Of a stretch of DNA of 64,000 nt, positions 3,197 through 64,000 are shown in pieces. Both the position numbers and the translations under genes were made by a program. The notes under the pieces were generated by a model that saw only the letters and a program-made list of their open reading frames with translations, was not told the DNA's origin and ran no database searches. Positions within the stretch are counted from its first letter, which is position 1. Each line of letters begins with the position of its first letter. This stretch comes from Escherichia phage vB_EcoP_PE006. Where the stretch lies: the sequence record OQ938541.1, one strand, 5' to 3'.

Positions 3197-3723
3197 CAGT
3201 AGATACTATAACTGTTAGTCCTTCGTCGGTTGCAAGCCTTCCGACGGGGGCTACTCAGCAGTTTACAGCTACAGCACAAATGAGTGATAGCTCCACATCA
3301 ACAACTGGATTTGTTTGGTCCGTTGAGGGTGGTGGGGCTATTTCTGTTTCTGGACTGTACACTGCACCGAGTGCGTCGCAAGAAACCCCGATTACAGTGA
3401 AAGCTACTAAAGGTGGTAAATCTGGTACATCTACGATCTCAGCTATTGCTGACCCTGAACCTACCCTTGTTAGCCGAGGTCCGATTTCAGGGAAGGTGGG
3501 TGGATCAACAACCGCATTCTCTACTATGTTTACAGCAACAAACTCTACCGGAAGTGACTATACTTTTGAGGTAACTCCTCCGGAAGCGGGCACTGTTAGT
3601 GCAGCTGGTCTTTTGACTCTTGCTGATACTGCTACGGGTGCAGTCTCTGTTACAGCTACACACGAGACTAAACCTCTTGTAACAGCCACTTGTGAATTCA
3701 CAGGTGTTACCCCCAAAGCCTAA
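3178..3723 (+). CDS. capsid C-terminal extension made by -1 frameshift (two Ig-like Big_2-type domains)
   Basis: -1 frame translation continues KGGGGVTVDTITVSPSSVASLPTGATQQFTATAQ..., Big_2-like strands; the ATG at 3280 lies mid-domain. Confidence 0.5.
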   Translation, partial: KGGGGVTVDTITVSPSSVASLPTGATQQFTATAQMSDSSTSTTGFVWSVEGGGAISVSGLYTAPSASQETPITVKATKGGKSGTSTISAIADPEPTLVSRGPISGKVGGSTTAFSTMFTATNSTGSDYTFEVTPPEAGTVSAAGLLTLADTATGAVSVTATHETKPLVTATCEFTGVTPKA

Positions 3724-3728
3724 AACTA

Positions 3729-3758
3729 AAGCTGCCTTCGGGTGGCTTTTCTTGTTTT
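3729..3758 (+). terminator. rho-independent terminator after capsid gene
   Basis: AAGCUGCC-UUCG-GGUGGCUU stem-loop (with G-U pairs) followed by UUCUUGUUUU. Confidence 0.6.
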
Positions 3759-3780
3759 AAGACCTATACAAGCTAGTGTG

Positions 3781-3789
3781 TAATGTATA
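3781..3789 (+). promoter_or_regulatory. TAATGTATA promoter-like element
   Basis: Exact TAATGTATA 34 nt upstream of the ATG at 3823, just downstream of the terminator. Confidence 0.45.
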
Positions 3790-3822
3790 TTCTTTGTCTA
3801 CATATAACAAGGAGGACAACCT

Positions 3823-4575
3823 ATGGCGATGCCTGAAGTGCAAAACCCGATTAACACGTATGGCTGGCTTAAGAAAGCTGTTGCCTTGTGGGCCGATCGA
3901 GACGATGATGAATTTGTTAATCAAATTCCAAACTTTATTAACTTTGCAGAGAAAGAGATTTATCGTAACTTACGTATCCCTCCTCTGGAAAAAGAAGTGT
4001 ATTTAGATATTAAAGATGGAGTAGCTTACATTCCTCCTGATTACTTAGAAGCTCAGTGGATGATGAGAGCCAAAGATGGTACAATCTTCCAAGTAACATC
4101 TCCTGAAGAGATTAGCTATCGTAGACAGCATGGAACAATTAACCCATCTCACTGGAATAACCAACCTGTTAACTTTGCTCGTTTCGGTAGTCGTTTCATT
4201 TTCTACCCTAGTATTGAAGCAGATACTCCTGTTTATCCTGATGATGGAAGTCCTTTGATTCCAGCAGAAAACTCAGTCATTCTTAGCTATTATGCAGACC
4301 CACCGGAGTTCCATGAAGATACAGATACCAGCGCTATTCTTACTATTGCACCAGAACTTCTTCTGTATTTCACTCTACGTCATGCTTGCTTGTTTGTTCA
4401 AGATGATAACGGAGTTCAGAAATGGTCTGCATTAGGAAAAGCTATCCTTGATGAAATGGTAGAGCAGAATAAGAAACAAGAGTACTCAGGTTCACCTATC
4501 GCAATTCCGAATAACATGACTCGACTTCAGAGCAGCTTGCCTGACATTTATGGTATTCGTACTTCTCGTGTATAA
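3823..4575 (+). CDS. hypothetical virion protein
   Basis: 250-aa ORF with AAGGAGG SD, first gene after the capsid terminator and promoter element. Confidence 0.5.
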   Translation: MAMPEVQNPINTYGWLKKAVALWADRDDDEFVNQIPNFINFAEKEIYRNLRIPPLEKEVYLDIKDGVAYIPPDYLEAQWMMRAKDGTIFQVTSPEEISYRRQHGTINPSHWNNQPVNFARFGSRFIFYPSIEADTPVYPDDGSPLIPAENSVILSYYADPPEFHEDTDTSAILTIAPELLLYFTLRHACLFVQDDNGVQKWSALGKAILDEMVEQNKKQEYSGSPIAIPNNMTRLQSSLPDIYGIRTSRV

Positions 4576-14100: not shown

Positions 14101-14202
14101 AACCATCCATACCTTTTCTATAATGTTATAGATAATGATGTTAACAGTAATGCTGCTATCAATGGGTTAACGATAGAGTTTGCTGTTGGCGGACGGAGAT
14201 AA
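11185..14202 (+). CDS. large structural protein with tandem Big_2 Ig-like domains
   Basis: 1005 aa; repeated Big_2 signatures (VTWSSNNASIVSVTP..., NITWTSSNPNIATVSGTSTQGTVNALLAGFTEITATT...). Confidence 0.6.
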   Translation: MALYPIKSLGAVGVIADQAPTDLAPNAFTNAINARFVEQRVFKTGGNAPLSYVDEDKDLTPLSFVSMPFDYYSAGNSFLVVGTDKKLYKLTDESLTDISRKVATVTKKASASIKIYPVVSQIVPKESTISMNFNQTKSLEVSLLPADANNTDLVWEVSNSTYGSVTVDPSDSKLATLTSFEREGNLVVTISTADDSVVAQIAVNIIDGDSGIFLSQDTVTIRKGGTTTLTAVTGKTPVTWSSNNASIVSVTPNANSLTAVITANGEGNVTITADNGTKTASCEVVSIPQIDSITLSQSDVIVSRGSQYILTATLSPANAPNQNITWTSSNPNIATVSGTSTQGTVNALLAGFTEITATTEEGNRVAVCTVRVDLAGRAMRTSAMAFAAPASEPIESQEEEVVTPPESEETIYFAEPTSGIDTSGMYEGNSFYDYSNVNDIEGFARASLLATPLSSVTLDVVSASLDVGEEIVITATASPEGDYSYQWSVDKTGYVSTTSVTGKSIKLVALRKGEINVTCTVSQMTQKDYDAFDDYPWYHAVISNCAVATTHYETPQVKEFESEYFVDLPGWGEQTVVDNDGNPSVKKFNWKCERVRSFNNRLFALNMREANASGVTTNYPLRLRWSNFANENKAPTLWDDFAYDRVVSSDLASNIVGQTQALENGYAGYIDLADSNGSLIDILPLKDYLFVYTEFETYIGSPTNNTYQPLMFKKLFNDSGILAPECVVEVEGSHFVVTQNDVILHNGATKKSIASNRVKNMLINEVCLVNPLATRVHLHQDKKEVWVLYVGPGEPKESFACTKAAVWNYEFDTWSFRTIPYAQCIGLVDPPVLERGPIWSDFQEITWDDPSIKELVWRKDATNFRQRVTIVGSFLRGFYQVDVGALDYFYDRLNDKVIEKPLEMRLERTGMDFDNITNEWNQKHINRFRPQTTGSGTYTFEAGGSQFSNEYGHPHTSKTYTIGVDRHVSVRLNHPYLFYNVIDNDVNSNAAINGLTIEFAVGGRR

Positions 14203-14245: not shown

Positions 14246-15214
14246 ATGGGTGCAGGTGGTTTTCGTAAGAACACTGGTCGTAATAACACCACACTCCCGT
14301 ACAACGTTGGGTTTCTCAATAATGTACAGGACACAGAAACATATAACGTAGCCGTATATGACGAGCTACAGAAAGTTAGTACAGCTACTAACCAAATGTT
14401 CCAAGCTATTGATGAGATTCATGATGAGATTGATGTTCGTATCAAAGCTCTTCATGCGATGAACTTACAATTTGATGAGCTTGAGAATAGAATTACTACA
14501 GAGATAGAGACAGCTATTGCAGATATTATAACACAGATGGGGAACCTCTCCACTGAAGATATTTGGGATAATTCTGTTCAACCTCCTGTAAAATTAGAAA
14601 GCACTGTATCTGGCTTTAAAACAAGTATTGAAGGTAACACAACTAAGATTCAAACGGTAGAAGGGATTGTTAACGACCAAGGTCAAGAGATTGCTTTAGT
14701 TCAGACAGAGATTCAAAATATTAATGGAAGCCTATCTCAGTATATGAAGCTTTCTGAGTATGAAGCTACATGGGGAGTTAACTCTACAGTCAACGGAAGA
14801 TATGCTGGGGTCAAGTTAACTAACAACGGAACAAACAGTCAATTCCAAGTAACAGCTAACAAGTTTATTGTTGGTGATGGTAGCTCTGGTAACACCCCTT
14901 TTGTGTTTGAGGGTGGAAGAGCTAGGATGGAGTTCGCTGACATAAAGAACGTCAACATCACAACAGCTCAGATTGCCAACGCTAGAATCCAATGGGCACA
15001 GATTGATAACGTATCTATCTCCAATGCTCAGATTCAGAACTTGTCAGCGGATAAGATTACTGCTGGTTCTATGTGGGGTTCTAACTGGAGACTTACGGTT
15101 GGTGGTGATTTTGTTATGGGTGGTACAGGTGGTTCTCAGTTGTGGATGAATGGTAATAGAATAGATTTTTATGATGGGAGTGGGACTCTTCGCATAAGAA
15201 TAGGGAGTTGGTAA
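14246..15214 (+). CDS. tail fibre-like protein
   Basis: ATG at 14246 follows the terminator and a GGAGG SD (the track start at 14180 overlaps the upstream gene and hairpin); repeats NITTAQIANARIQWAQIDNVSISNAQIQNLSADKIT. Confidence 0.5.
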   Translation: MGAGGFRKNTGRNNTTLPYNVGFLNNVQDTETYNVAVYDELQKVSTATNQMFQAIDEIHDEIDVRIKALHAMNLQFDELENRITTEIETAIADIITQMGNLSTEDIWDNSVQPPVKLESTVSGFKTSIEGNTTKIQTVEGIVNDQGQEIALVQTEIQNINGSLSQYMKLSEYEATWGVNSTVNGRYAGVKLTNNGTNSQFQVTANKFIVGDGSSGNTPFVFEGGRARMEFADIKNVNITTAQIANARIQWAQIDNVSISNAQIQNLSADKITAGSMWGSNWRLTVGGDFVMGGTGGSQLWMNGNRIDFYDGSGTLRIRIGSW

Positions 15215-15215
15215 T

Positions 15216-16250
15216 ATGGCATATGGAATATGGACACGCCCGGTCGGTCCGGGTCCAGCGGCACCTGCTGATATTTACATTGATAGTGGTAGCACATTTC
15301 CTCAACTCAGAAACAGGGTCAGTGGGAATTTCTCTTTTAGTGGAAATACCTGTGACTTGCCTATAAGCGGTTGGGATGGAAGTGGTCAGATAGTTGTAGT
15401 TCCAACAGGATCTGTTGTTTGGGAGAGATACATACCTCCTAACGTAACATCTGATGTGTATTGGCTAACGGATATATCTGTTATTAACAACTCAACCTTC
15501 AGAGTTACTATGGATTATAACGTAAACGGTTGGGTATTTGATATGGCTTTTAATGTGTATCAAATATGGCCTAGAGCTAATAGAAACTATGGAATCACAT
15601 TCTCCAACTCTGCTGACTATTTCTCAATCTCTGATTCTGGGGTTGTTGGTCAATGTATTTGGGCTTGGGAGGGTGATATAAACGGTTCTCTTCAAATACC
15701 AGATATTGGTGGTTTTGACATGAGCCGAGCAACTGTCTACGCGAATTGGAGTAACGGCGGAGCAGGTCTGCTATACAACCCATCCAATAGGGTTGTTTAT
15801 GTGTACCAGAACAGGTCTCATGATAATGGTAACACAAACCAAACAGGGTACATTGGTGGTGTTAGGATTGCCGTCTTCTGTGATGGTTCGGGAGTACCAA
15901 CCCACAATGGAGGTTTAAATATCTTTTCTCCAAATGGATCTCAGTGTGTATTTTCTACATATAGAACCCCTTTTAGAGTTGAGGGCTTTATGCCTATGAG
16001 TGGTGGTAACACATCTTTGGCCTATCCAATGATACCTCTATCTTATGGTGCTGGTGCAATAAGAGGTAAGGCTAGTGGTTGGTATTTTCAACACACAAGA
16101 TCCCACATGATGAATGGCTCTTCTTTCGGTACAGGTTTCGGAAGGATGATTTACTCTTGGAGTAGTCAATATGATTTAGGAGGGGGTGGTGCCCTCGGGT
16201 TAAGTATTCCAGTATTAGATGCTAGAAAGATATTCAGGAGTATACAATAA
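15216..16250 (+). CDS. hypothetical virion protein (beta-rich, possible receptor-binding)
   Basis: 344 aa, G/S/N/W-rich; contiguous with fibre-like genes. Confidence 0.45.
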   Translation: MAYGIWTRPVGPGPAAPADIYIDSGSTFPQLRNRVSGNFSFSGNTCDLPISGWDGSGQIVVVPTGSVVWERYIPPNVTSDVYWLTDISVINNSTFRVTMDYNVNGWVFDMAFNVYQIWPRANRNYGITFSNSADYFSISDSGVVGQCIWAWEGDINGSLQIPDIGGFDMSRATVYANWSNGGAGLLYNPSNRVVYVYQNRSHDNGNTNQTGYIGGVRIAVFCDGSGVPTHNGGLNIFSPNGSQCVFSTYRTPFRVEGFMPMSGGNTSLAYPMIPLSYGAGAIRGKASGWYFQHTRSHMMNGSSFGTGFGRMIYSWSSQYDLGGGGALGLSIPVLDARKIFRSIQ

Positions 16251-27817: not shown

Positions 27818-29101
<1,284 letters not shown>

Positions 29102-29348
29102 AATGCATCTCTTTATAAATGGTTTCCGTGTTCTTCTTCCAGCTAGATAAACCGGTAAGAACTCTCTGGGCAACTTCATCAGCTGCCTTGCTTCTTTCAA
29201 TCTCTAATTCTTGCTGGTGCTTCTCTTTGTCCAGATTACTACTGTCTGTTTGATATTCGTTAAACTTCATACCACCAAAGAATACAAGAGCTGAGAAAAC
29301 GATAAACCCTAAGTTATCACTTAACGTGTTTTGCATGTTGTCTCCAAC

Positions 29349-29372
29349 GAAAAAAGCCACCCGAAGGTGGCT
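29349..29372 (-). terminator. rho-independent terminator after SSB gene
   Basis: - strand AGCCACC-UUCG-GGUGGCU followed by UUUUU. Confidence 0.55.
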
Positions 29373-56705: not shown

Positions 56706-57068
56706 CTATTGGTTTTTAATCAACTCAATCGACTTACGGATATAAAGAATATCTCGGAAGTTTCGATAGTTGTTCATAAATTGGTGCTTCTGGAAAGTAG
56801 CTTCTTCCAGAGCTTTCTTTGCTTCTGCGTAGTTTTTACGGGCAAGATGTACAACCCGCTCTGGTAACACATTTGCACGACGGATGATATACTTGTGAGC
56901 TTTCATGTTGCTTTGCTCACGAGCAATCTTACCTTTAGCAACTTTGATACCATTTGCAATCCAAGCAAGTTCTTGCTCAAGATCCTCGTTGGACATTCCA
57001 CCGAGATTTGATGCAACCTTGTTCAGAGTTTCAATATTAACGTTGCCCTTGATGGGACGTGTATTCAT
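56706..57068 (-). CDS. hypothetical protein
   Basis: 120-aa ORF; first sizeable gene after the 57.25 kb terminator. Confidence 0.4.
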   Translation of the reverse strand: MNTRPIKGNVNIETLNKVASNLGGMSNEDLEQELAWIANGIKVAKGKIAREQSNMKAHKYIIRRANVLPERVVHLARKNYAEAKKALEEATFQKHQFMNNYRNFRDILYIRKSIELIKNQ

Positions 57069-57070
57069 AC

Positions 57071-57223
57071 TTACTCCTGTTGTTTACACTCGTCAATAAC
57101 CCACTGATAAGTGGATTGCCCAGAAAAGAAACACTGAATAAATCCAGATGTTCTCTGCGTTACCAGTGCTAGTGCACAAATCACTACCGCCGCTGCTAGC
57201 AGTTTTAAATCTAATTTAGACAT
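57071..57223 (-). CDS. small membrane protein
   Basis: 50-aa ORF MSKLDLKLLAAAVVICALALVTQ... with GAGAGG SD; stop overlaps the next SD. Confidence 0.3.
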   Translation of the reverse strand: MSKLDLKLLAAAVVICALALVTQRTSGFIQCFFSGQSTYQWVIDECKQQE

Positions 57224-57240
57224 ATTTCCTCTCATTGAAT

Positions 57241-57267
57241 TTAAAAAAGGACTCTCCGAAAAGAGTC
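57241..57267 (-). terminator. rho-independent terminator (- strand)
   Basis: - strand GACUCU-UUUCGG-AGAGUC followed by CUUUUUUAA. Confidence 0.5.
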
Positions 57268-57424
57268 AAGCTTTAAATCCAAAAAAAGATATTACCCAAT
57301 ATCTGTGGATAACCTGCTCTTAAAATATCTATCCGACGGATGTTTGAGGAACACTCCTCGCCCTAGCATCGGCCCCATACGGGAAATATATTAAGATTAG
57401 GTTAGTTGAGTCAGAATAACTCAC

Positions 57425-57448
57425 ATAGCCCTCCGGAGGGAAGGCTAT
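57425..57448 (-). repeat. conserved intergenic hairpin module, copy 1
   Basis: ATAGCC ... GGCTAT stem followed by GTGAG on the - strand; GTGTTCCTCA and AACATCCG blocks nearby; same blocks at 62279-62323. Confidence 0.4.
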
Positions 57449-57462
57449 AGGCGTTACTACAA

Positions 57463-57681
57463 CTAAAAATCACCTGATTTTACAAAATCATCACTAAGAA
57501 TTTCGTCAATCTCTTTGCTAGTCAAATCTTTCCTGAACCAGCAACAAGGAACATTCACCCATTGACCAGAGTTATTCTCTACAGAGCACAGATTCCCTGT
57601 CTTACTCTTGCATTTATAGGATTTTCCTTTATCTAGACGATAGTGTAATCTGTAAACGACAGACACAAGTGTTATCATCAC
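57463..57681 (-). CDS. hypothetical protein
   Basis: 72-aa ORF. Confidence 0.35.
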   Translation of the reverse strand: MMITLVSVVYRLHYRLDKGKSYKCKSKTGNLCSVENNSGQWVNVPCCWFRKDLTSKEIDEILSDDFVKSGDF

Positions 57682-57911
57682 TCACCTTTCTTGGCACGAT
57701 CTTTGGCAGTTTTGCCAGTGCGGATACGATGGGAAACGTTAACCAAAGTGCCACCATCAACTACGGTAACGCTCTTATTTTTAGCCAGATCAAACACGGT
57801 CTTCTCTGTGCCACCCAAGCGAATTTGCTTAGGCTCGCTGAAGGTTTGGGTTGATTTGGATTGGAACTGGAACGGTTGACGGATTGCATCAATTGCACTT
57901 ACTTTAGACAT
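57678..57911 (-). CDS. hypothetical protein
   Basis: 77-aa ORF; AAGGAA SD preceded by a hairpin plus U-tract. Confidence 0.35.
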   Translation of the reverse strand: MSKVSAIDAIRQPFQFQSKSTQTFSEPKQIRLGGTEKTVFDLAKNKSVTVVDGGTLVNVSHRIRTGKTAKDRAKKGE

Positions 57912-58142
57912 AGGGGAAATTCCTTAAAAAGTTATGGCTGCGTAGAGGGAATTCCCTACGCAAATTGGGCCGCCCACAGAGAGGCGTCATAGTACTAAAA
58001 GGAGGAGAGAAGAGGGCTTATTTAGCTACCTTTTTCTGTCCATTTACGAACCAGATAATTGAACCATCAGGCTGTCGTTGACCGAAGCCTTTCTGGTTAA
58101 TCATATCGTCATAAGAATATGCTTTACGTCTCATTTATTTTC

Positions 58143-58385
58143 CTATGGAGTTAAGATAATTTCAGCCTTACTAAACTTCTCACCAACTTCAAGAGTGTCA
58201 GCAACAGGACGGGGCACACCTGTACCCAAACAAACAGCTCTTCGATACCCTCCAGTCACAGGCATCATCAAATAGATGATCTGATTATCATCTTCTTTTA
58301 AAGTGAAGATATCAGCGATCGATAGATCTTTAACAAAGAGTTTCTTTTCTTCTTCATGATGAACTTTGATATGTATTGTGCTCAT
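58143..58385 (-). CDS. hypothetical small protein
   Basis: 80-aa ORF. Confidence 0.35.
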   Translation of the reverse strand: MSTIHIKVHHEEEKKLFVKDLSIADIFTLKEDDNQIIYLMMPVTGGYRRAVCLGTGVPRPVADTLEVGEKFSKAEIILTP

Positions 58386-58387
58386 AC

Positions 58388-58624
58388 CTACTCCTGAACA
58401 ACTGACATACGAATCATTTCAACCTGATCATCAAGGCTCTTAACAGATAGCACACCTGTGGAAAGGTTTACCACAGGAACCCAACCCCTGGCTATACCAG
58501 AGGCATTTTCAACCCTCATATAATACTGAGGGGAGGCACTTCCGTGCTGAATCACGAAAGGGTTTCCGGGAATGATTGTTTCCAATCGTACCGTATTATC
58601 CTTTTTCTTAGGGATAATCTTCAT
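58388..58624 (-). CDS. hypothetical small protein
   Basis: 78-aa ORF. Confidence 0.35.
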   Translation of the reverse strand: MKIIPKKKDNTVRLETIIPGNPFVIQHGSASPQYYMRVENASGIARGWVPVVNLSTGVLSVKSLDDQVEMIRMSVVQE

Positions 58625-58632
58625 ATTGATTC

Positions 58633-58944
58633 CTATTTAAGTTTGAGGCTAATGTTAAGGTGCATACATGCCCTGTTCTGTACAGCAGCATAGCTTCTAC
58701 CGAGCATGTCAGCCATTCTCTGAATGGACATGAACCCAGCGTTACGGATAAGGAACTGGTCTTCTTCTTTAGACCATTTAACTCGGATTGCAGCTCTTGA
58801 TATACCAAACTTAGTGCAAGCTGTATTAACTGCATTCTCCGTTACATTCATAATCTGAGCAACCTCTTGAACAGAGTACTCTTTGATTAGTCTCCGAAGA
58901 TTTTCAATCTGCATCGGAGTCCATATAGTTCTTCGAGCTTTCAT
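58633..58944 (-). CDS. putative DNA-binding protein with two helix-turn-helix-like repeats
   Basis: Two repeats of W...E.L..L.......IA..M... type (WTPMQIENLRRLIKEYSVQEVAQIM / WSKEEDQFLIRNAGFMSIQRMADML). Confidence 0.4.
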   Translation of the reverse strand: MKARRTIWTPMQIENLRRLIKEYSVQEVAQIMNVTENAVNTACTKFGISRAAIRVKWSKEEDQFLIRNAGFMSIQRMADMLGRSYAAVQNRACMHLNISLKLK

Positions 58945-59235
58945 ACATCCTCCAATTAAACATTTATATAAGACTTGCTTAGATAAAGATTCAATAAAAT
59001 AGGGGGAGGGGACGAATCCTCCCTTATCCTATTAATTAATATTGCATGTAAGATCTAACAATCGGTTGCCTTTGTAGGAATAAGCGTTATGCCAATCCAG
59101 CACTAAACTCCCGCCCCCTTAGTGGGCTGGGTTATTAAAGGGTAACGCCCTTATGGGCTAGTTACATGAATGTTAGTTTGATAGGAGATCTGAAGTCCTA
59201 TCTCAAAGGACTCTCGTAAGAATCCTTCACGATAG

Positions 59236-59427
59236 TCACCCTTTATAGGTGGTACAGATTAATGTTGCATGTCTTTGGTTATACAGTTCGAAGTAACGAG
59301 GCTTGCTCCAGTCTCTGTCTCTGGTAAATGATTGAAGGATGAAGTGTCTGTCACATCCAAGCCACTCAGAAACATCCATCGCTAGACGTATAGGAGAACC
59401 TCTGAACTCTCTTCGCTCCATAGCCAC
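59236..59427 (-). CDS. hypothetical protein
   Basis: 63-aa ORF. Confidence 0.3.
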   Translation of the reverse strand: MAMERREFRGSPIRLAMDVSEWLGCDRHFILQSFTRDRDWSKPRYFELYNQRHATLICTTYKG

Positions 59428-59576
59428 CCCTTAATATTACTTATTCATCTCTCGTCGGCTATCTCTCCAAGCCAACCAAGTGTAGGTTTTCAGCTCTTCA
59501 AAATCTTCTGGAGAGAATAGGTATTCTTTGAAGGTATCACCAAACCATTTTAAAAACTCTTCAGTCATAAAACCTC

Positions 59577-59750
59577 TTAACAAGATTGATCACAAGGCTG
59601 ATCTCCACATGTTTTACAGATCACTGGTGAATAACTACAGGCAGGATATACTGACACGCCATCAAACGTTTCGCACCCACAGTCAGGGCATTCCCCGTTG
59701 GATTCCATGTCGTCATCGTCATATACTTCACCACCACCATAGCAGCTCAT
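59577..59750 (-). CDS. small Cys-rich (zinc-binding-like) acidic protein
   Basis: 57-aa ORF MSCYGGGEVYDDDDMESNGECPDCGCETFDG...CKTCGDQPCDQSC, not in the track (<60 aa). Confidence 0.35.
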   Translation of the reverse strand: MSCYGGGEVYDDDDMESNGECPDCGCETFDGVSVYPACSYSPVICKTCGDQPCDQSC

Positions 59751-59759
59751 ATGAACTCC

Positions 59760-59981
59760 TTAATAAACTAAACCTATAGCCTTTGCATCAGGCTGAGGGA
59801 CTACTTTTGCACTAGGGCGATAGCCATCCACTGAACCATTCCAAAGGTTGACACAGGTGATATACCCATCATTCAAGTAGTCTGTTTTAATCCAGAAGTG
59901 TTTATCATGACCAAAAATACTTCCGTTTGGCAGCGTGGATAGTTCAACAGTTTTAAGGGATTGTTTAGAATCTAATTTCAT
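59760..59981 (-). CDS. small protein (paralog of 62333-62551)
   Basis: GSIFGHDKHFWIKTDY ... NGSVDGYRPSAKVVPQPD aligns with DVFSYDKRFWLMLED ... SGSVEVFGLSTTVMPRPD. Confidence 0.4.
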   Translation of the reverse strand: MKLDSKQSLKTVELSTLPNGSIFGHDKHFWIKTDYLNDGYITCVNLWNGSVDGYRPSAKVVPQPDAKAIGLVY

Positions 59982-59990
59982 ATAAGTTCC

Positions 59991-60245
59991 TTAATATACC
60001 AAGCCATGTAAGAGAAACACTCTCTTAGTTAACTCTGCTTTAGCTCTGTAATAAGCCTTAGAACCTAACAGGCGGCGTTTAACAAAGAACTTAATGTCAT
60101 TGCTAACATCTTGTATTAAACGCTCCTGTACAGCTTCTGAGGAGCTATTAATCGAATCAATTAACACCTTTGTAGACGTGTAATTCATATTACCACTCCT
60201 TACCGGTTGTAATCGTAGAGCCACCACACCACAACGCTGTATCAA
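59991..60245 (-). CDS. hypothetical protein
   Basis: 84-aa ORF. Confidence 0.3.
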   Translation of the reverse strand: MIQRCGVVALRLQPVRSGNMNYTSTKVLIDSINSSSEAVQERLIQDVSNDIKFFVKRRLLGSKAYYRAKAELTKRVFLLHGLVY

Positions 60246-60495
60246 TCACAACATTGTCTGGTGTAGACTTCTCTTCGTTGATAGAAGGGTTAGCATTAGA
60301 GCAGGTTGCTCCGTTCCAGCGCATATCAATCTCACCAGAAGGAACCTTCTCACCTTTATGCCAGCGAGATACACAAATACCTTCCACTGCTACTGCACAC
60401 CATCCATCAGGACGGCTCTGTACACAGCCTGTAAGGGCCACACAGACGATGAAGATACATGTTAAGGATATTACACCACCCCAACTCATAACCAC
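60190..60495 (-). CDS. Cys-rich lipoprotein
   Basis: Signal peptide with LTGC lipobox (…IFIVCVALTGCVQ…), then a Cys-rich mature part. Confidence 0.45.
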   Translation of the reverse strand: MVMSWGGVISLTCIFIVCVALTGCVQSRPDGWCAVAVEGICVSRWHKGEKVPSGEIDMRWNGATCSNANPSINEEKSTPDNVVIDTALWCGGSTITTGKEW

Positions 60496-60529
60496 CTCCT
60501 ATACAATTGAGCTAACGGCGCAGAATTAT

Positions 60530-60837
60530 TTATAAGGAGAAAGACTTCTTACAATCCTTCTCTTCAAAAGTGTAGTAGCCTGTTGTATCAGGGAAGTAGG
60601 CATACTTTGTTTCTTTGCCATCAATAACCATGACACGATTACCAGAAGTTGTTTCTACAAACAGAAGCCCATCTCTTACTATACCATGAGATTCTTTGAT
60701 ACCAGTTAAGCTATGCTCTTTAAGAGTGCATTGCTGAACACTCTGATACTTAACTCCAATCTCTGCACTATTAACAGAGATGATACCAATGGTTGTCATT
60801 AGTAGTAAGGTTGAGATGATAAAATTCTTTTGTTTCA
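60530..60837 (-). CDS. secreted/periplasmic protein
   Basis: Likely GTG start at ~60837 giving (M)KQKNFIISTLLLMTTIGIISVNSA signal peptide; the 160-aa track ORF extends upstream over the neighbouring gene. Confidence 0.35.
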
Positions 60838-60845
60838 CATTAACC

Positions 60846-61097
60846 TCAAGTACAAGCAGGGAGAGTGATGATTTTATACTGACCTTCGAACTCTCCAAAT
60901 AAACCCAAGAATGTAGGACTGTAAGTACCAGTACAAACAAACTCATCAAACAATGCGTTATAGCTAGGCTTAATCTTCCAAGCCCATACATAACCCATCT
61001 TGTCAATTGCAATGTAACGAGTGTTCAGAGGAACAGTCATCATCACATCATCAACTTCGATCACTTTAGTTATTGGTGCAGCTTGGAAGTTTTTCAT
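60846..61097 (-). CDS. hypothetical protein
   Basis: 83-aa ORF. Confidence 0.35.
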   Translation of the reverse strand: MKNFQAAPITKVIEVDDVMMTVPLNTRYIAIDKMGYVWAWKIKPSYNALFDEFVCTGTYSPTFLGLFGEFEGQYKIITLPACT

Positions 61098-61279
61098 ACT
61101 TTACCTTTGATAAAAATGTCATTACCACAGACACAGCATGAACGAACAACAGTAGCGCCACGCTGAACTATACGAACCTCTTCCTTAACCAGATTAACAC
61201 GAGCACCACAGCAAGGAGAGTTAACATAAGAGTAACCAGCTTGTGTATTCTTGATTGTTTGCTTAGACATTTGATTCAA
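61094..61279 (-). CDS. zinc-ribbon protein
   Basis: CCGARVNL ... CCVCGNDIF. Confidence 0.35.
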   Translation of the reverse strand: MNQMSKQTIKNTQAGYSYVNSPCCGARVNLVKEEVRIVQRGATVVRSCCVCGNDIFIKGKV

Positions 61280-61679
61280 GATCTCTCAGTTGTTTAGCCA
61301 ATTGTTCACACTCGTTGATGCAGAACGCTTCTGTTCTTGGAACCCCGTTAGGGTTGAACCGTGTCTTATCACATGCATGGGCACAATCAAATCCGATTGT
61401 ATCCAAACCACCCATCTCTTCAAGGGTGTCTTGCCATGTGACGCCACCATGAACGTCCACATAACAAACAACCTTTTCCTCTCCGTTATATCCGGTGAAG
61501 TTTTTATGTTTCAAGCTATCTGGTAACTCTACATACCCACATAAGTGGGAATTGTTCATGTGCATAATCACAGCACGAAGACCTGATTTAGTTTCCCAAC
61601 TTTTAACTATGCGTCTCATATAAGCACCTCTTGTTAGTTTAAGTAAGAGTTGTCCCTTAATTAAAACAACAAAGGCCAC
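61263..61679 (-). CDS. hypothetical protein
   Basis: 138-aa ORF. Confidence 0.4.
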   Translation of the reverse strand: MAFVVLIKGQLLLKLTRGAYMRRIVKSWETKSGLRAVIMHMNNSHLCGYVELPDSLKHKNFTGYNGEEKVVCYVDVHGGVTWQDTLEEMGGLDTIGFDCAHACDKTRFNPNGVPRTEAFCINECEQLAKQLRDLESNV

Positions 61680-61703
61680 CCGATTGGGCAGCCTTTCTTT
61701 TAT

Positions 61704-61946
61704 TCAAAGAGCATGTATTTGCAGCTCTCGAAGTTTCATAGCCACATAAGAGTTAGAAGAAACAATCCACTTATGAAAGACTACCTTAGCACCAGTTCGA
61801 GAACAGCCTAACTCTTGTGCAAGCTTACTGAACACATCACCATCTTCTGCAAAGAAGAAAGGGGCACAACGACAGATCGCTTTTTGTTCTTTGTTAGTTA
61901 CCATATGTCCAGTTGCCTTGCTTGTTACGGATGACTGACATTGCAT
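61704..61946 (-). CDS. hypothetical small protein (possible HTH)
   Basis: 80-aa ORF; LAQELGCSRTGAKVVFHKW HTH-like segment. Confidence 0.3.
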   Translation of the reverse strand: MQCQSSVTSKATGHMVTNKEQKAICRCAPFFFAEDGDVFSKLAQELGCSRTGAKVVFHKWIVSSNSYVAMKLRELQIHAL

Positions 61947-62295
61947 GAATCCAGAAGCCTTCCAGTTTCAGAGCACCGTTAGCTACTGCATCCATACGTT
62001 CAGGGCGGTTCATACGTTTGGTTGATACTTTCATACCTATCTCTCTTTGTTAGTGGAGGCATTATTGCCAGTTGATATAGCGGATGACTCTTATAATAGA
62101 GCCACCTACTCTACAAACTGGTGAAGACTCCCTACCCCTAGGAAGTCTCCTGAATCCCAAACCAATACGTACCCCTACATATCGGAAAGTCTTTCGAAAA
62201 TTAACAGGTTTTAGTCTAGCACCGGATGTTCGAGCAAGCTCTCCCTAGCGGTGTGGCATATGCCTGATTAATAAGTTAATGAGGAACACCCTCAC

Positions 62296-62323
62296 ATAGC
62301 CCTCTGATAAACACAAGGGCTAT
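62296..62323 (-). repeat. conserved intergenic hairpin module, copy 2
   Basis: ATAGCCCT ... AGGGCTAT 8-bp stem, 12-nt loop, then GTGAG / GGTGTTCCTCA on the - strand, directly after a stop codon. Confidence 0.4.
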
Positions 62324-62332
62324 AAGTCGATG

Positions 62333-62551
62333 TTACTTTTGAGATAAACACAGATCAGGACGTGGCATAACAGTGGTTGATAGACCGAAGACTTCAACAG
62401 AACCACTGCTCAAGTTAGCAGCCTTACACAAACCATCAGGGGTTTTATCTTCTAGCATCAGCCAGAAACGTTTATCGTAAGAGAAAACATCACCACCCTT
62501 AACGTCTTCTGCATTTGCATATTTAGGATAATCAACTACTTTAATGTCCAT
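62333..62551 (-). CDS. small protein (paralog of 59760-59981)
   Basis: 72-aa ORF; see paralog alignment. Confidence 0.4.
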   Translation of the reverse strand: MDIKVVDYPKYANAEDVKGGDVFSYDKRFWLMLEDKTPDGLCKAANLSSGSVEVFGLSTTVMPRPDLCLSQK

Positions 62552-62809
62552 CTAATTGCCCTTATTGGTAATTACTGCATCAGGGATAAGGATTACAGGA
62601 AGACCTGAATCAAGCTTCATAACCTGATTAGATCTTAAACCAAGTACAACTGTTCCAGAATCTTTCTTGTTTGACTCCGTTACATGTGGAGTGAATAAAT
62701 TAACAACCAAATAATGATCGACACGCGTAGCTTTAACTTGGAACACGTCCCCAATCTTTAAATCACCCACTGTAAGATCTGGGTCTTTCATCTCAAGATC
62801 AATCTTCAT
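62552..62809 (-). CDS. hypothetical small protein
   Basis: 85-aa ORF, tightly packed with neighbours. Confidence 0.35.
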   Translation of the reverse strand: MKIDLEMKDPDLTVGDLKIGDVFQVKATRVDHYLVVNLFTPHVTESNKKDSGTVVLGLRSNQVMKLDSGLPVILIPDAVITNKGN

Positions 62810-63056
62810 CTTTAGCCTCTATGTTGGTTATATGGAGATCACTACGCACTTGGCAGATCTCGTCTCGGTTAATACCGGTCAGTGTTCCGGATACCACATT
62901 AACACATTTAACATGATAGTCAGATGTGGAGTCTGTTCTTATATAAAGAATGCCTCGGAAAGAAAACAAAACTCCAGGCTTCATGTTAGTTAAGCGAATC
63001 GTTGTATGATCATGCTTAATATTAACTTTCACTGTTAATCTCCTGCTGCTTAGCAA
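62799..63056 (-). CDS. hypothetical small protein
   Basis: 85-aa ORF. Confidence 0.35.
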   Translation of the reverse strand: MLSSRRLTVKVNIKHDHTTIRLTNMKPGVLFSFRGILYIRTDSTSDYHVKCVNVVSGTLTGINRDEICQVRSDLHITNIEAKDED

Positions 63057-63318
63057 TAGCTACTCGCAAGTCTTCATTAGCACGAGCAAGGCGCAACACT
63101 TCATGATTGAGATTCTGAAGACGCTTGTTTCTGTCCTCTACTTGCATAATAAGATCGTTAAGAGTTGCTTTAACTTTCTCATTATACATCTCATCCACTC
63201 GGACTAGGGACTTATACATTCTCTCCCAGCTTGCTGCTTTGTTTCTAAGGATAATAAATCCTATAACGCTGATAGTTAAACAGCTTACAAAAAGGAATTT
63301 ATATACTTCTAAAGTCAT
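63022..63318 (-). CDS. membrane-anchored coiled-coil protein
   Basis: N-terminal TM (LFVSCLTISVIGFIIL) followed by helical region. Confidence 0.35.
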   Translation of the reverse strand: MTLEVYKFLFVSCLTISVIGFIILRNKAASWERMYKSLVRVDEMYNEKVKATLNDLIMQVEDRNKRLQNLNHEVLRLARANEDLRVAIAKQQEINSES

Positions 63319-63518
63319 ATTATTTACCCTTTTATCAGAGATTAAAAGTAATATTATTTAAGTAAGTTATATTTAGTAAACTTATTTTCTAAGAAATTTT
63401 CAAAGGGTCTATATACAGAGCATTACCCATAGTCCCAGAATACTACCATCTTTTTCAATAAATTTACTAAGTGGTTGGTTTATAAAGGAATTTAGTTTGT
63501 CAAATCTGGCACTAGTGA

Positions 63519-63908
63519 TTACTCCCTAGAGCTATTATCGAACACTAAATCACCACAATACATAGGATTGGCATACCATTTTGGCACCCCTTCGCTCTTA
63601 CTCTGAAAGTAAGTCCCACTATACAGCGGAACATAATTCTTCTTAAGGGCACGTTTAGCAAGTCGCTCGCTTTCTCCAATGGCTTGCTTAGTCATCGGAT
63701 TCTTATCACGAATCAGCTTTACATAACGTTTATAAGGTTTCTCCTGTTTTAATAATACCGGAATCCACTCAAACTGGTTCTTTTGTCTTATCACCTGTTC
63801 AGCGGTCAGTTTTCGTTGGGCCATTCTATTTATCACGGTGTCCGCAACTAAAGCCTTACATGCGGTTGGCTGGTTCCCTGCCTCATAATAAATAGTCAAT
63901 GTCAACAT
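63519..63908 (-). CDS. cell-wall hydrolase-like protein (SleB/Hydrolase_2-like, tentative)
   Basis: LTIYYEAGNQPTACKALVADTVINRMAQ ... QKNQFEWIP resembles the aEArGE ... NR ... QF signature. Confidence 0.4.
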   Translation of the reverse strand: MLTLTIYYEAGNQPTACKALVADTVINRMAQRKLTAEQVIRQKNQFEWIPVLLKQEKPYKRYVKLIRDKNPMTKQAIGESERLAKRALKKNYVPLYSGTYFQSKSEGVPKWYANPMYCGDLVFDNSSRE

Positions 63909-64000
63909 TAGCTGGGCCGTTGTTATCAGAACTTGCTACCTCCTGTTTTACGGGCATAAAAAAGCCCCAGCCGTAGCCGGGGCAAACCTGAAAGCAACAC

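Follow-up and report, generated by a model that had tools for sequence, protein, structure and literature searches.

The lipoprotein gene and its family

The window analyzed here is a 64,000-nucleotide stretch of DNA from Escherichia phage vB_EcoP_PE006 (sequence record OQ938541.1), a Kuravirus, i.e., a phiEco32-like podophage of the Gordonclarkvirinae. Its 58-63 kb region was 85-96% identical to NJ01, IMEP8, and about 100 other Escherichia phages, with phiEco32 also among the closest genomes. We focused on a small lipoprotein gene in this region, on the minus strand at 60190..60489, whose phiEco32 orthologue, gp106, is annotated as a "putative phage lipoprotein". The gene and the parts of its product were assigned as follows, with the basis of each assignment in brackets.

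60190..60489 (-), lipoprotein gene, Rtp45 family, phiEco32 gp106 orthologue (open reading frame [ORF], Shine-Dalgarno sequence and ATG, PF24052, 9RPS_D, AlphaFold2 [AF2] and Foldseek)
60495..60499 (-), Shine-Dalgarno sequence GGAGG, 5 nt 5' of the ATG (read from the sequence)
60427..60489 (-), signal peptide, residues 1-21 (pattern, hydrophobicity, family conservation, AF2 helix)
60424..60435 (-), lipobox L19-T20-G21-C22 (classical pattern and a PROSITE PS51257-like rule)
60304..60426 (-), Rtp45-like core, residues 22-62, with the RPDGWC31...C39 pair and the first arm of a long β-hairpin (alignment; predicted local distance difference test [pLDDT] score >90)
60226..60303 (-), kuravirus-type insertion, residues 63-88, flanked by Cys63 and Cys88 (alignment, AF2)
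60193..60225 (-), C-terminal strand, residues 89-99, with the motif GGS.ITTGKEW (alignment)

A preliminary description of this DNA had reported an ORF at 60190-60495. The minus-strand ORF was confirmed, but its start was moved: the GTG at 60495 overlaps the Shine-Dalgarno sequence, while the ATG at 60489 lies 5 nt past GGAGG and was therefore taken as the start codon. The gene thus encodes a 99-amino-acid precursor, MSWGGVISLTCIFIVCVALTGC followed by VQSRPDGWCAVAVEGICVSRWHKGEKVPSGEIDMRWNGATCSNANPSINEEKSTPDNVVIDTALWCGGSTITTGKEW, where the junction marks the predicted cleavage before Cys22. The same description had seen a signal peptide ending in an LTGC lipobox and a short, Cys-rich mature domain, and both were borne out. 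The lipobox (residues 19-22) fits two lipobox patterns, and the mature protein of 78 amino acids has, in addition to Cys22, which is predicted to be lipidated, four more Cys residues at positions 31, 39, 63, and 88. The signal peptide and lipobox were assigned from pattern and hydrophobicity (mean Kyte-Doolittle value of 2.4 across residues 5-21), and the signal peptide was helical at residues 3-20 in the AF2 model. Lol-dependent sorting of lipoproteins to the outer membrane is governed by the +2 rule. Residue +2 is Val here, not Asp, and outer-membrane sorting is therefore predicted.

The lipoprotein matched the Pfam family PF24052 ("Phage lipoprotein family") over the entire profile (positions 1-80 of 80; 117.6 bits against a cut-off of 27, E=2.4e-34), and it also matched phrog_4281. 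With tblastn, homologues were found in 382 phage records. About 97 of these were kuravirus records, with 60-98% identity to the lipoprotein, and the other matches came from Drexlerviridae and Dhillonvirus coliphages, Klebsiella Weberviruses, and phage Rtp (rtp45). Given the full-length PF24052 match and its presence at no less than 60% identity in this number of Kuravirus records, the gene is, on sequence grounds, not a chance ORF. The single-sequence homologue search reached only kuravirus-type clusters, and the siphophage members were reached only with a profile built from mixed homologues. In the family alignment of 98 clusters, C31, C39, G52, and G60 were invariant, and G21, C22, G29, G37, G46, V49, D55, R57, G90, E98, and W99 were at least 90% conserved; the lipoprotein from the window retained every one of these invariant and nearly invariant columns. 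It was also noted that NJ01 (NC_018835) holds an intact orthologue with 96% identity (3671..3970, minus strand, of the stretch examined), which is unannotated in both GenBank and RefSeq, the locus tag NJ01_120 being skipped.

Predicted fold and the hairpin-tip insertion

A phmmer search of the PDB with the lipoprotein gave one real match, chain D of entry 9RPS, which is Rtp45 (E=6.5e-14). The report on this entry (PMC12685063) describes it as a cryo-electron microscopy (cryo-EM) structure of Shigella LptDE(M) with Rtp45, the superinfection-exclusion protein of phage Rtp. In the alignment of the two proteins, the pattern RPDGWC..G.CV..W..G..VP.GE.D.R..G was kept, and the homology extended over the full length, with approximately 40% identity in the core. 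C31 and C39 aligned with C30 and C38 of Rtp45, which form a disulfide pair. These Cys positions are invariant in the family, and the same disulfide is predicted here. A C-terminal GS..TGKEW motif was common to Rtp45 and to the Klebsiella, Oekolampad, and pSf-2 lipoproteins. By each test run, the lipoprotein is a clear homologue of Rtp45 at the sequence level and a member of PF24052; taken alone, it adds one member to a family of which the founder was solved structurally in 2025.

An AF2 model of the lipoprotein, built on the family alignment, had a mean pLDDT of 80 and values >90 in the core. It showed a small β-unit around C31 and C39, followed by a long hairpin made up of strands 52-65 and 86-98. 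When this predicted model was compared with experimental structures in the PDB using Foldseek, 9rps_D was the top match (probability 1.0, template modeling [TM] score of 0.78 when normalized to the target, E=2.6e-3), and the next match was approximately 1,000-fold worse (E=2.6). According to the same report, Rtp45 sits on the periplasmic side of the LptD barrel, flanked by LptE and LptM, its hairpin runs up the LptD lumen and shifts extracellular loop 4 by as much as 20 angstroms, and its disulfide-loop region forms a β-sheet with LptD (PMC12685063).

The kuravirus proteins carry an insertion of 20-45 residues between R-[YW]-x-G and [CS]-G-S that is not found in Rtp45 or its siphophage homologues. 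In the AF2 model, this insertion (26 residues in the window lipoprotein) was a low-pLDDT loop at the tip of the hairpin. The register of the hairpin strands, in which the numbers of paired residues sum to 151, sets C63 opposite C88, making a second disulfide plausible, and the loop is probably closed by a C63-C88 bond, as judged from the model. Among kuravirus alleles, which were 93, 98, 99, and 108 amino acids long, the loop was the most variable part, with a mean pairwise identity of 0.48 compared to 0.81 for the core. As the hairpin is the part of Rtp45 that rises through the LptD lumen, the insertion would sit at the business end of the protein.

The window lipoprotein thus shares with Rtp45 (UniProt Q333D9) the lipobox, the Cys pair, the VP.GE.D.R.xG strand, the C-terminal motif, and the predicted long β-hairpin, but differs from it by the Cys-bracketed insertion of 26 residues at the predicted hairpin tip and by a signal peptide without a basic residue. 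SE-Oeko (Oekolampad gp26, bas18_0026) and the lipoproteins of the Drexlerviridae, Dhillonvirus, and Webervirus phages belong to the same Pfam family and have the same motifs. These proteins are, however, only 73-81 amino acids long, lack the Cys-bracketed loop, and all come from siphophages.

Candidate receptor-binding partners and the early gene cluster

When the window was searched with siphophage receptor-binding proteins (RBPs), one clear match was obtained, and the gene directly upstream of it was found to encode the tail needle:

15216..16250 (+), candidate cognate RBP, DUF6453 protein of 344 amino acids (PF20051, Rtp44 tblastn, 9RPT_C, AF2 and Foldseek)
14246..15214 (+), with an ORF from the TTG at 14180, tail needle, SU10 gp18 orthologue, with a lambda-J-like tail-tip domain (PF09327, BLASTP)

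The match at 15216..16250 was found both by tblastn with Rtp44 (E=1e-14) and with a small hidden Markov model (E=1e-19). Its product belongs to DUF6453 (PF20051; 88 bits against a cut-off of 25, E=9.5e-25), the family of Rtp44 and RBP-Oekolampad, and shares with the siphophage RBPs an N-terminal M-[AG]-x-G-I motif. In the PDB, it matched 9RPT_C by phmmer (E=5.8e-9), and its AF2 model (pLDDT 86, predicted TM score of 0.87) had 9rpt_C as the top Foldseek match (E=3.2e-12, TM score of 0.80), the next one having an E value of 0.16. Entry 9RPT is RBP-Oekolampad solved in complex with open-state LptDE (PMC12685063). Approximately 90 kuravirus records had the DUF6453 protein at 60% identity or above, and CDS19 of phage SU10 is an orthologue with 61% identity. 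PHROG 1265 labels the protein "membrane protein; moron", a label that has been carried into RefSeq and BASEL annotations, and related genomes call it "membrane protein", "moron", or "hypothetical"; the label may be why the protein was overlooked.

The needle product matched PF09327 (Phage_Tail_Tip) with E=1.1e-26, and its residues ~60-344 aligned end to end by BLASTP with the last ~280 amino acids of J-like proteins from phages T1, Rtp, Oekolampad, and pSf-2. The ORF read from the TTG at 14180 was matched by phrog_16534 from residue 23. The needle of this podophage thereby resembles a truncated J protein of T1-like siphophages. The DUF6453 gene lies directly 3' of the needle gene, and the needle is the predicted docking site for the DUF6453 protein.

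We then compared this arrangement with eight siphophage loci, i.e., Rtp, Oekolampad, pSf-2, TR1, and four metagenomic contigs chosen for diversity. In all eight, the PF24052 gene directly adjoined the DUF6453 gene, beside the gene for a J-like protein, on which PF09327 was recorded in three loci. The lipoprotein, the DUF6453 protein, and the J-like tip are all encoded in the window, which therefore holds the complete siphophage module for LptD recognition, and the presence of a DUF6453 protein in the same genome is a further likeness to Rtp. The adjacency seen in the siphophages was not found, however: the lipoprotein gene lies in the early cluster of a podophage, ~44 kb from the DUF6453 gene and on the opposite strand, whereas rtp45 adjoins it by gpJ. 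Divergent kuravirus-like contigs with an SU10-type portal also carried both the lipoprotein (43% identity) and the DUF6453 protein (45%). Separation is not unique to kuraviruses, as the exclusion gene is unlinked from the DUF6453 gene in Klebsiella Weberviruses too. In Klebsiella phage ZX2 (MW722081), the PF24052 gene lies between helicase and Dam methylase genes (3995..4222 of the stretch examined), and the DUF6453 gene, at 43328..43966 of the record, is ~10 kb away from it. The departures of the window lipoprotein from the characterized members of the family are thus the variable, Cys-bracketed insertion, the early location in a podophage, and the separation from the RBP gene.

Identity of only ~40% to Rtp45 in the core, together with an insertion of 20-45 residues, would also fit a protein that has kept the fold and changed its target, so that the lipoprotein would bind another outer-membrane protein or have a periplasmic role other than exclusion; the related Klebsiella Webervirus lipoproteins have no known receptor, and their gene is not beside gpJ. 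We consider this improbable. All family-invariant positions are retained, the insertion lies at the hairpin tip and not in the disulfide-loop region that forms the β-sheet with LptD, and every siphophage partner examined was a DUF6453 protein, and phages of the Rtp and Oekolampad types have been shown or are predicted to use LptD.

The genes around the lipoprotein gene, and a second lipobox-containing locus elsewhere in the window, were also examined:

60530..60838 (-), neighboring gene for a secreted protein of 102 amino acids with a GTG start and 2 Cys (signal peptidase I-type signal, cleaved between MKQKNFIISTLLLMTTIGIISVNSA and EIG, i.e., VNSA/E)
28841..29360 (-), overlapping spanin pair (Rz-like i-spanin, phrog_1152, E=7.7e-37, and an embedded out-of-frame lipobox ORF)

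The placement of the lipoprotein gene "among early genes" in the preliminary description rested on position, and it agrees with phiEco32, where gp106 lies in a leftward cluster at the right end that was experimentally classed as early. A single base separates the stop codon of the lipoprotein gene from the start codon, ATG, of the following small gene (59991..60188), which makes co-transcription and translational coupling of the two probable. The lipoprotein gene is flanked by terminator-like minus-strand hairpins at ~61671 and ~59004. A promoter scan of 57000..64000 gave 15 sigma-70-like sites compared to 16.3 +/- 4.8 in shuffled sequence, i.e., no excess. The neighbor, for which a signal peptide had also been noted, does encode one, although the gene ends at 60838, one base beyond the 60837 given before. 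It matched only phrog_23590, had no Pfam match, and was present in only 10 phage records, all from kuraviruses. The NCBIfam search returned nothing for it, for the lipoprotein, or for the DUF6453 protein, and nothing was found that links the neighbor to the function of the lipoprotein. The neighbor occupies the position of the phiEco32 tRNA-Arg gene, and a search of the window for tRNA genes found none.

Two other ORFs of this region were of note. An early-cluster ORF at 63519..63908 (minus strand, 129 amino acids) matched Pfam Hydrolase_2 (SleB-type cell wall hydrolase, E=1.7e-7); this is an odd location for a peptidoglycan hydrolase, and related kuravirus-like contigs have one too. The ORF at 59577..59750 (minus strand, 57 amino acids) encodes an extremely Cys- and Asp-rich product (MSCYGGGEVYDDDDMESNGECPDCGCETF...CKTCGDQPCDQSC) without a Pfam match, possibly a small metal-binding protein.

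A small phage lipoprotein of the outer membrane with several Cys residues could also be a lysis protein, i.e., an Rz1-like outer-membrane spanin. The window, however, encodes a separate, overlapping spanin pair at 28841..29360, and the lipoprotein gene lies in the early cluster without an i-spanin partner and is homologous to Rtp45. The Rz/Rz1-type pair excludes the o-spanin role in practice, and we regard this explanation as extremely improbable. The embedded lipobox ORF of the pair (28841..29101, 86 amino acids, ...MSISAC...) is presumably the o-spanin, and the pair adjoins a phage sigma-factor-like gene, away from the holin/endolysin cassette.

LptDE as the predicted target and LptD as a possible receptor

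The preliminary description had proposed a role in superinfection exclusion or receptor masking, and the homology to Rtp45 (9RPS_D, E=6.5e-14; Foldseek TM score of 0.78) argues for such a role. From the homology to Rtp45 and the co-occurrence of the partner genes, the window lipoprotein is likely a superinfection-exclusion lipoprotein of the Rtp45 family that acts on LptDE, and the predicted target is the lipopolysaccharide (LPS) translocon LptDE, not FhuA. The analysis shows the gene, its lipobox, its place in the family, its likeness to Rtp45 in sequence and predicted fold, and the DUF6453 and J-tip partners; we infer its export and sorting, its binding to LptDE, and its exclusion phenotype, as well as the use of LptD as receptor by kuraviruses discussed below. 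The lipoprotein gene would be transcribed together with the early genes, and the precursor would be exported via Sec, lipidated at Cys22, and then processed by signal peptidase II. With Val at +2, the lipoprotein would be carried by Lol to the outer membrane and placed in its inner leaflet, where it would bind the periplasmic face of LptD between LptE and LptM, as Rtp45 does. The long β-hairpin with its extra loop of 26 residues would be pushed up the LptD lumen and would displace extracellular loop 4, so that LptD-binding RBPs of the DUF6453 type could not dock. The likely cognate RBP would be the DUF6453 protein of the phage itself (15216..16250), in which case the lipoprotein would guard the cell from the same phage as well as from LptD-dependent siphophages. 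Progeny may also be spared from wasteful adsorption to LptD in the debris of lysed cells, and PMC12685063 and PMC8948821 give this rationale of exclusion and debris sparing for Rtp45 and T5 Llp as well.

The parallel to T5 Llp drawn in the preliminary description held for the functional logic, but not for relatedness. As predicted for the product of the window gene, Llp is a small lipoprotein of the outer membrane that a lytic phage makes early, and it binds the receptor of that phage from the periplasmic side and prevents RBP binding. The early phiEco32 gp106 cluster parallels the early expression of llp (Decker et al. 1994, as cited in PMC8948821). The target of Llp is FhuA, a TonB-dependent transporter, on which it acts through long-range allostery; Rtp45, by contrast, displaces loops physically (PMC12685063). 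BLASTP gave no alignment between Llp and the lipoprotein at E<=100, and Llp had no PF24052 match. Cor (T1, phi80, and N15; FhuA exclusion) is likewise a small phage superinfection-exclusion lipoprotein, and its genes are encoded near tail-tip genes. It was also rejected as a relative: BLASTP found nothing, T1 Cor scored 17.7 bits on PF24052, under the cut-off of 27, and the hhalign alignment covered 25 columns only, consisting of the signal peptide and the first few residues past the lipobox Cys.

The hairpin of Rtp45 runs up the LptD lumen (PMC12685063), and the primary receptor of the phage is thought to be the LPS O-antigen. A lipoprotein that plugs LptDE could thus instead serve to stop the insertion of new LPS and O-antigen, altering the cell surface or weakening the outer membrane for lysis. 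This appears very improbable to us. LPS already on the surface would not be removed within one lytic cycle, inhibited LPS export is not reported for Rtp45 in the sections of PMC12685063 consulted, and the DUF6453 partner would be left unexplained.

Together with the lipoprotein, the DUF6453 protein encoded beside the needle gene raises the possibility that LptD is also used for infection. In our judgment, the chances are about even that kuraviruses carry an overlooked, LptD-directed RBP of the DUF6453 family and use LptD as the terminal receptor. In such a case, the J-like needle would carry the DUF6453 protein (orthologous to SU10 gp19) at its tip for binding LptD, a placement that could equally prove right or wrong. 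Exclusion to match would come from the early lipoprotein, plugging LptD from the periplasm with an enlarged, disulfide-closed hairpin tip, and here, too, we see the balance as level.

Several observations weigh against this. Kuraviruses are described as strictly O-antigen dependent, with the LPS core as the proposed ligand of their short tail fibers and with no known receptor among outer-membrane proteins, and ES17-resistant mutants had lost O-antigen and were not altered in lptD (PMC11990801). In the literature searched, no publication tying LptD to kuraviruses or phiEco32 was found, and DUF6453 was found only in an annotation table of one publication. The DUF6453 protein of kuraviruses is only ~24% identical to Rtp44, and its receptor could therefore have changed. 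Co-variation of lipoprotein and DUF6453 alleles was sought among the kuravirus records and not found; in IMEP8, for example, the lipoprotein was 98% identical and the DUF6453 protein only 72%. For the lipoprotein itself, the n-region of the signal peptide has no Lys or Arg, which is atypical, and this leader is identical in all kuravirus orthologues.

The main caveat comes from SU10. CDS19, the DUF6453 orthologue, was not detected by mass spectrometry of virions, whereas CDS16-18 and CDS20-24 were (PMC4281155), and gp19 is not mentioned in the SU10 cryo-EM paper. A needle-tip protein would probably be present in low copy number, CDS19 yields only six tryptic peptides of 7-30 residues, and the map of the needle in the cryo-EM paper reached only 15 angstroms, with three-fold averaging. 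These points soften the failure to detect CDS19 but do not remove it.

The same observations could point to purely heterotypic exclusion, in which the lipoprotein binds LptDE and shuts out LptD-dependent siphophages while the kuravirus itself does not use LptD. The competitors share gut and sewage hosts, and the DUF6453 protein would then have some other role. Current models, which assign only glycan receptors to kuraviruses, would be in line with this, as would the failure to detect SU10 gp19 in virion proteomics and the unlinked lipoprotein and DUF6453 genes with alleles that do not co-vary. Nevertheless, we think it unlikely, as practically all kuraviruses have kept the DUF6453 gene, within the tail and ejection module and directly after the needle with its J-like end. 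This order, needle and then DUF6453, is the order found in LptD-dependent siphophages, and the DUF6453 protein of the window keeps, in its predicted model, the fold of RBP-Oekolampad, as well as the M-[AG]-x-G-I motif.

If LptD is indeed the terminal receptor of kuraviruses, with the lipoprotein as the matching exclusion factor, a whole module for LptD recognition and exclusion would have passed between two kinds of phage, siphophages and podophages. Genome delivery by kuraviruses is currently modeled as glycan binding followed by mere piercing of the membrane by the needle, and this model would need to be extended. LptD would be a predicted protein receptor for widespread, therapeutically used E. 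coli podophages that are currently thought to depend on glycans only (O-antigen and LPS core), and this prediction is directly testable with existing lptD mutants and the kuravirus isolates of the BASEL collection. As LptD is both essential and conserved, LptD-dependent phages are of interest for phage therapy and phage steering. Expressing an exclusion lipoprotein would offer a simple way to block all such phages, for example in fermentation strains. Finally, the variable, Cys-bracketed insertion at the hairpin tip would provide a natural series of variants on a periplasmic plug that reshapes the extracellular face of LptD.

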